Of a stretch of 64,000 nucleotides of DNA, positions 45,153 through 45,608 are shown piece by piece. Origin of the DNA: Escherichia phage JN02. Below the pieces are notes generated by a model that worked only from the letters and a program-made list of their open reading frames with translations, was not told the DNA's origin and made no database searches. Within the stretch, counting starts at the first letter, position 1. The number at the start of each line of letters is the position of its first letter. The DNA lies in the sequence record MT782071.1; one strand, written 5' to 3'. The translations under genes and the position numbers were made by a program.

Positions 45153-45608
45153 TTATTTTAGATCTTCGGCCCAATCTAGTTTTAAGGGTTCTTTGTATTC
45201 ACGGTCGAGAATAACCGGAATAGCTACATCACCACTGAATGATAGTTGGCCAACGTTATATGATAACGTTATATGTGGAGTGTAGTCGTCGAAATCATGA
45301 GTAGCACCTAAAGCCAGTGCATACTGATGACGACATCTAAGATATTCGGAATCAAGAACTAAAACCAGTACAGCGCCGTCGTCAGTTTTCCATACCTCAA
45401 AGTGTCCTGATTCGGCAATAGAATAACTACCACTAGATGTAGTATATGGTATGTTTACACGTGAATAACAAATTGTTGAATGAAGCTTTTCACGTGGTAC
45501 TGGATTAGGAATTCTTAATTTGCGCTGGAGGTCTTCCAACGCATCAAGTGTTAATTCCGAAAATTTAGCTGCGACGTAGAGGCCTTGTGAAAAGTCCTCA
45601 AATTTCAT
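45153..45608 (-). CDS. 57B: 2H-phosphoesterase family protein gp57B (Acb1-like anti-CBASS nuclease)
   Basis: 151 aa; two H-x-[TS]-x motifs (LHSTICYS and PHITLSYN) typical of 2H phosphoesterases; position between ipI-like gene and 57A; T4 57B is the described Acb1. Confidence 0.7.

Follow-up and report, generated by a model that had tools for sequence, protein, structure and literature searches.

The window analyzed in this study, a 64,000-nucleotide stretch of Escherichia phage JN02 (MT782071.1), contained an ATG-started ORF of 151 amino acids on the minus strand (45153..45608, with the stop codon counted in the end coordinate) according to the ORF listing. The ORF was assigned as the CDS of acb1 (gene 57B) from this listing together with the Pfam family PF23474 and the crystal structure 7T26. 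Upstream of it, on the same strand, were 57A, encoding the tail-fibre chaperone (45608..45838; PF17594 GP57, E=5.9e-23), and gene 1, encoding the dNMP kinase (45843..46577; PF21448, E=1.1e-96), and immediately downstream was ipI, encoding internal protein I (44788..45075, minus strand; PF11634 IPI_T4, E=1.4e-50). A gene for a gp3-like tail protein and then an ORF at the gene 2 position were found upstream of gene 1, and the gene order of the window was that of T4 (ipI-57B-57A-1-3-2). The initial annotation had placed the ORF at the 57B position, in agreement with the identification of ipI, 57A, and gene 1 as its neighbours in T4 order. Additionally, the 3-1-57A-57B block was kept in T4 and in Klebsiella, Proteus, Acinetobacter, Aeromonas, Vibrio, and other Escherichia straboviruses. 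As in the window, the acb1 slot of T4 lies between 57A and ipI with the upstream promoter motifs conserved, and the adjacency of ipI and acb1 in T4 has been noted previously (PMC9117128). IPI is an inhibitor of GmrSD-type restriction, and the pairing of ipI and 57B as anti-defence genes is common to T4 and the window.

The 57B protein is identical to QNI20638.1, which comes from the unclassified Mosigvirus JN02, and this exact protein was deposited as a 'hypothetical protein'. JN02 is an RB69/JS09-like coliphage, and the RB69 protein falls within the 90%-identity cluster of the 57B protein. The 2-kb region around 57B showed 98-99.3% DNA identity to many Mosigvirus genomes, including those of vB_EcoM_TU01 (species Mosigvirus JS09), GADS24, and F2.

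A regular-expression scan of the translation identified exactly two H-x-[TS]-x motifs in the protein, HSTI and HITL, as the initial annotation had stated for this 151-aa product. The first motif (H43-S44-T45-I46, corresponding to H44/T46 of T4) is encoded at 45471..45482 on the minus strand by the codons CAT TCA ACA ATT, and the second (H112-I113-T114-L115, corresponding to H113/T115 of T4) at 45264..45275 on the minus strand by CAT ATA ACG TTA; both were confirmed codon by codon in the window sequence. The remaining histidines (His 69, 94, and 104) are outside any H-x-[TS]-x motif. At least two HxT/S motifs were also obtained in 14% of 20,000 shuffles of the protein, indicating that the motif pair alone is no better than chance and is weak evidence for Acb1. 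The weight of the Acb1 assignment comes from full-length homology, which does exceed chance, and not from the motifs.

In the Pfam search, Acb1 (PF23474) was the sole family over threshold for the 57B protein, with an E-value of 6.7e-58, a score of 195 bits against a cut-off of 27, and coverage of the profile from position 1 to 144 of 144. When the search was extended to E<=10, one further match appeared, to 2_5_RNA_ligase2 (PF13563; 14.9 bits against a cut-off of 27, E=0.028), and PF02834 (LigT / 2'-5' RNA ligase) did not match the protein even at this limit; no NCBIfam model matched it. Such a sub-threshold match is consistent with a protein that belongs to the 2H superfamily but is not itself a true LigT enzyme. 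The LigT / 2'-5' RNA ligase group (PF13563 and relatives) shares the 2H superfamily and its two-histidine chemistry with Acb1, and differs from it in comprising cellular RNA-end enzymes, not cyclic-oligonucleotide nucleases.

Among solved structures, the Acb1 of Erwinia phage FBB1 (PDB 7T26 and 7T27) matched residues 9-148 of the 57B protein with an E-value of 3.1e-58. A profile built from 11 homologues detected few solved relatives by sequence, namely 7T26/7T27, 9Q2G, 9Q2Y, and the C-terminal domain of the Pam3 portal. The compact 2H phosphoesterase fold predicted for the 57B protein draws its support from homology, at 64% identity to the 7T26 chain over 141 residues, and with this identity to a crystal structure we take the fold to be settled; a single-sequence AlphaFold2 model of the protein was unusable (mean pLDDT 42, pTM 0.34). 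The 57B ORF is thus very likely to be an intact, well-conserved Mosigvirus orthologue of the T4 gene 57B, acb1.

T4 Acb1 (gp57B, NP_049750.1) was 84% identical to the 57B protein over the whole length and could be aligned from end to end without an internal indel, the window protein being one residue shorter at its N-terminus. Both His and both Thr of the catalytic tetrad were located in aligned columns, and neither a poor alignment to Acb1 nor the loss of a catalytic His, the two outcomes that the initial annotation had listed as contrary to its proposal, was seen. The initial annotation had also taken T4 gp57B to be the described Acb1, which is borne out by Hobbs et al. 2022 (PMC9117128), where T4 Acb1 is the founding anti-CBASS nuclease and gp57B was shown to be the enzyme behind the cleavage of cGAMP in lysates of infected cells.

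In T4 Acb1, the tetrad HxT/HxT consists of H44, T46, H113, and T115, the bases are stacked by the aromatic residues Y12, W74, F107, and W147, the adenine N6 is touched by E141, and residues 145-152 form the C-terminal lid (PMC9117128). Given that a T4 residue number equals that of the window protein plus one, all nine of these named residues were identical in the 57B protein (Y11, H43, T45, W73, F106, H112, T114, E140, and W146). The lid, including W146, was located by alignment to T4 at residues 144-151 (T4 145-152; 45156..45179, minus strand) and reads LDWAEDLK compared with LDWADDLK in T4, with seven of eight residues identical and E148 in place of D. Thus, the tetrad, the stacking aromatics, the Glu, and the C-terminal lid of T4 Acb1 are all common to the window protein. 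In an alignment of 11 Straboviridae sequences, down to 35% identity, G9, Y11, H43, T45, H112, and T114 were invariant, and E140 was nearly invariant among the same homologues. The FBB1 enzyme (7T26, apo; 7T27, with 3'3'-cGAMP), which was 64% identical over 141 aligned residues with one single-residue indel (an insertion after position 78), has the same tetrad and identical equivalents of Y12, E141, and W147; W73 and F106 of the window protein and T4 are replaced there by F and Y, both still aromatic.

These data bear on the possibility that 57B encodes a generic 2H RNA enzyme (a LigT-type 2'-5' RNA ligase or RNA 2',3'-cyclic phosphodiesterase) that would process the ends of RNAs, for example in tRNA repair, and not immune signals. 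Such a function could be read from the label of PHROG 755, 'RNA ligase', which is the name on many phage records, from the faint Pfam 2_5_RNA_ligase2 match (E=0.028), and from the position of 57B near a tRNA cluster. However, the LigT-superfamily score of 14.9 bits remains below its cut-off of 27 and compares with 195 bits for Acb1, and the 'RNA ligase' label is older than the 2022 characterisation and was transferred at the superfamily level. Moreover, the T4 orthologue is the enzyme that accounts for cGAMP cleavage in infected lysate, and the dinucleotide-specific contacts, namely the stacking aromatics, E140, and the lid, are all retained in the 57B protein. We therefore regard a generic RNA enzyme as very improbable.

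A total of 24 substitutions distinguished the 57B protein from T4 Acb1, and none of them affected the nine functional residues; among them were L42 beside the catalytic His, F70 close to W73, and E148 within the lid, and many were conservative or equal to the FBB1 residue. The positions of some substitutions in the core and of one in the lid leave some room for the protein to be a genuine Acb1 orthologue that no longer has the substrate range of T4 Acb1, with, for example, weaker activity on Panoptes-triggering decoys such as cA3 or 2'3'-c-di-AMP or a gained activity on 3'2'-cGAMP or cGG. A 2025 preprint shows that related viral 2H PDEs can prefer different substrates although their active sites are conserved, the preference being set by the protein core, and type II Panoptes selects against T-even Acb1 activity (PMC13577387), which means that a pressure for retuning exists. 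Nevertheless, every named ligand contact is identical to T4, most substitutions are conservative or lie where the cGAMP-active FBB1 Acb1 already differs, and nine diverse Acb1 homologues all cleave both cGAMP and cAAA (PMC9117128), and we consider a shift in specificity unlikely. A particular form of it, in which the core of the Mosigvirus Acb1 has been retuned (e.g., at F70, Q95, L98, or E148) to spare the cA3 and 2'3'-c-di-AMP decoys while still destroying CBASS signals, seems to us quite unlikely; if true, anti-CBASS activity would be kept without tripping Panoptes-type guard systems.

More distant relatives of the 57B protein were found in PDB 9Q2G and 9Q2Y, each named 'Anti-CBASS protein Acb1' (165 aa), which matched the family by profile (E=4e-11) and kept the two HxT motifs. 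These proteins probably represent the 2H PDE-9 type Acb1 of the Doherty et al. 2025 preprint, and differ from the window protein in having, according to the preprint, an N-terminal lid instead of the T4-type C-terminal lid. The 2H PDE-9 enzyme disfavours 2'3'-c-di-AMP (Doherty et al. 2025 preprint). The Acb1 profile also matched the C-terminal part of the portal protein of cyanophage Pam3 (PDB 8HDS chain A, residues ~482-610; E=4.8e-10) with the HxT motifs aligned, which suggests that this protein may carry an Acb1-like 2H domain fused to the portal.

The 57B ORF contained neither a premature stop codon nor a frameshift. This check of integrity is not trivial, because acb1 nonsense and escaper alleles occur in T-even phages: a nonsense allele is natural in the T-even phage Bas43, and Bas35 escapers lose acb1 function under type II Panoptes selection (PMC13577387). 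Comparison with T4 gave a dN of 0.133, a dS of about 2.0, with synonymous sites close to saturation, and a dN/dS of 0.066; this low ratio indicates that strong purifying selection has acted on the 57B protein ever since the divergence of the two genera. The sequence was also identical or nearly so in scores of independent Mosigvirus isolates. The Bas43 and Bas35 alleles give grounds for considering that the JN02 copy is intact but non-functional, through lack of expression or an inactivating missense mutation as in some Panoptes-escaping T-even phages, but the uninterrupted reading frame, the dN/dS value, the near-identity among isolates, the apparent coupling of its start to the 57A stop, and the promoter motifs conserved with T4 make this extremely unlikely. 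The 'RNA ligase' and pseudogene readings were both rejected. The conserved residues, a LigT score below threshold, the low dN/dS, and the activity published for the T4 enzyme (84% identical) and for nine other homologues speak against these two readings and against a shifted specificity alike. The proposal of the initial annotation that the phage probably carries a functional Acb1 is supported by the homology, the intact gene, and the dN/dS of 0.066.

The TAA stop codon of 57A and the ATG start codon of 57B share one base (TAATG, 45606-45610), which suggests translational coupling of the two genes; the overlap is 1 nt in the window compared with 4 nt in T4. It is probable that 57B shares a transcript with 57A, downstream of gene 1, and that its translation is coupled to that of 57A. 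The promoter assignments near 57B are pattern matches only. A putative middle-type promoter was found on the minus strand upstream of gene 1 (46605..46633), where a MotA-box-like element (AATCGCTTCTA; CGCTT) is followed by a perfect TATAAT; in T4, the corresponding place upstream of gene 1 is taken by TTAATGCTTCA...TATAAT (a TGCTT/TATAAT element). We infer that this element may be the source of a 1-57A-57B transcript. In addition, the late-promoter motif TATAAATA was matched within gene 1 (46193..46200, minus strand), approximately 360 nt upstream of 57A, and the T4 gene 1 has the same TATAAATA motif in the same place with the same flanks (TATAAATAATAT). Across the whole window, TATAAATA was observed 8 times compared with 7.6 expected by chance, and because the window-wide count equals chance, only the position conserved with T4 counts. 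In the literature, the activity of T4 Acb1 is present early in infection and then persists. A generic terminator scan from gene 1 to ipI returned only weak stem-loops within coding sequence, which were not taken as terminators.

The spacer between 57B and ipI (45076..45152, minus strand) was predicted by RNA folding to form a stable stem-loop at 45104..45130 (-17.1 kcal/mol, z=-3.6). This hairpin overlaps a sigma-70-like TTTACA-17-TACTAT element on the minus strand (45110-45138). The T4 spacer has a hairpin at this position too, although its stem differs in sequence. This suggests that the structure itself is conserved, for example as a promoter for ipI, as the 5' end of a transcript, or as an element for RNA processing.

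How the 57B protein acts, which substrates it cleaves, when it is expressed, and its effect on CBASS are inferred, as follows. By homology, the protein would be a small metal-independent 2H phosphoesterase. By analogy with the T4 and FBB1 enzymes, a U-shaped pocket would bind cyclic di- or trinucleotide CBASS signals with at least one adenosine, and the likely substrates would be 3'3'-cGAMP, cUA, cAAA, and cAAG. In this pocket, Y11, W73, F106, and W146 are expected to stack on the bases and E140 to read the adenine N6, while the C-terminal lid would shut over the ligand. The H43/T45/H112/T114 tetrad would then catalyse an attack of the 2'-OH on the 3'-5' phosphodiester, with cleavage 3' of adenosine that passes through a 2',3'-cyclic phosphate and leaves a linear product ending in a 3'-phosphate. 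Destruction of the second messenger may keep the CBASS effectors off and allow the cell to survive until the phage cycle is complete.

The identification of 57B as Acb1 is an ordinary finding that was already known: in UniRef, near-identical Mosigvirus proteins of the 90% cluster already carry the name 'Anti-CBASS protein Acb1'. In GenBank, 57B proteins are labelled mostly as 'hypothetical protein' or, via PHROG 755, as 'RNA ligase'. No direct biochemical or genetic assay of an Acb1 from a Mosigvirus or from RB69 was found in a search of the literature. The Acb1 assignment matters little except for correct annotation, the relatives being widely mislabelled as 'RNA ligase'. A separate case was observed in the record of phage vB_EcoM_JQD51 (PV204681.1, 44532..49229), in which the product names are displaced by one CDS, so that ipI is called 'RNA ligase', 57B is called 'tail fiber assembly protein', and 57A is called 'deoxynucleoside monophosphate kinase'; these shifted names are a database annotation error.

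A homologue of the Vs.4/Acb2 sponge was also identified in the window (29818..30063, minus strand; 81 aa), with a match to PF24729 Acb2_Tad1_hairpin (E=2.3e-17). It was 69% identical to T4 Vs.4 (NP_049728) by tblastn and differed from it by an 8-residue deletion in the middle of the protein. Because this homologue is present beside Acb1 in the window, the phage appears to carry both known T4 anti-CBASS proteins, and its predicted set of Acb1, Acb2, and IPI would be that of T4. The Acb1 label helps to predict the behaviour of the phage: with Acb1, the Acb2 homologue, and IPI, many CBASS systems should be resisted, and the same genes should expose the phage to Panoptes-type guards that sense cyclic-nucleotide depletion. 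These predictions are relevant to the choice of Mosigvirus phages for therapy or biocontrol.

Downstream of ipI, just two tRNA genes, Arg-tct and Met-cat, were found on the minus strand (43125..43281). The equivalent part of the T4 genome holds eight tRNAs, together with two small RNAs and the homing endonuclease segB. The Met tRNA is placed on the opposite strand in the TU01 annotation relative to the ARAGORN prediction in the window. Between the tRNA genes and ipI, four small conserved ORFs (43361..44738, minus strand) belonged to PHROGs 2290, 2023, 1411, and 1692; a Pfam search gave no match for any of the four. Three of the four occupy the positions of T4 trna.2-trna.4, and the group adjoins two anti-defence genes.
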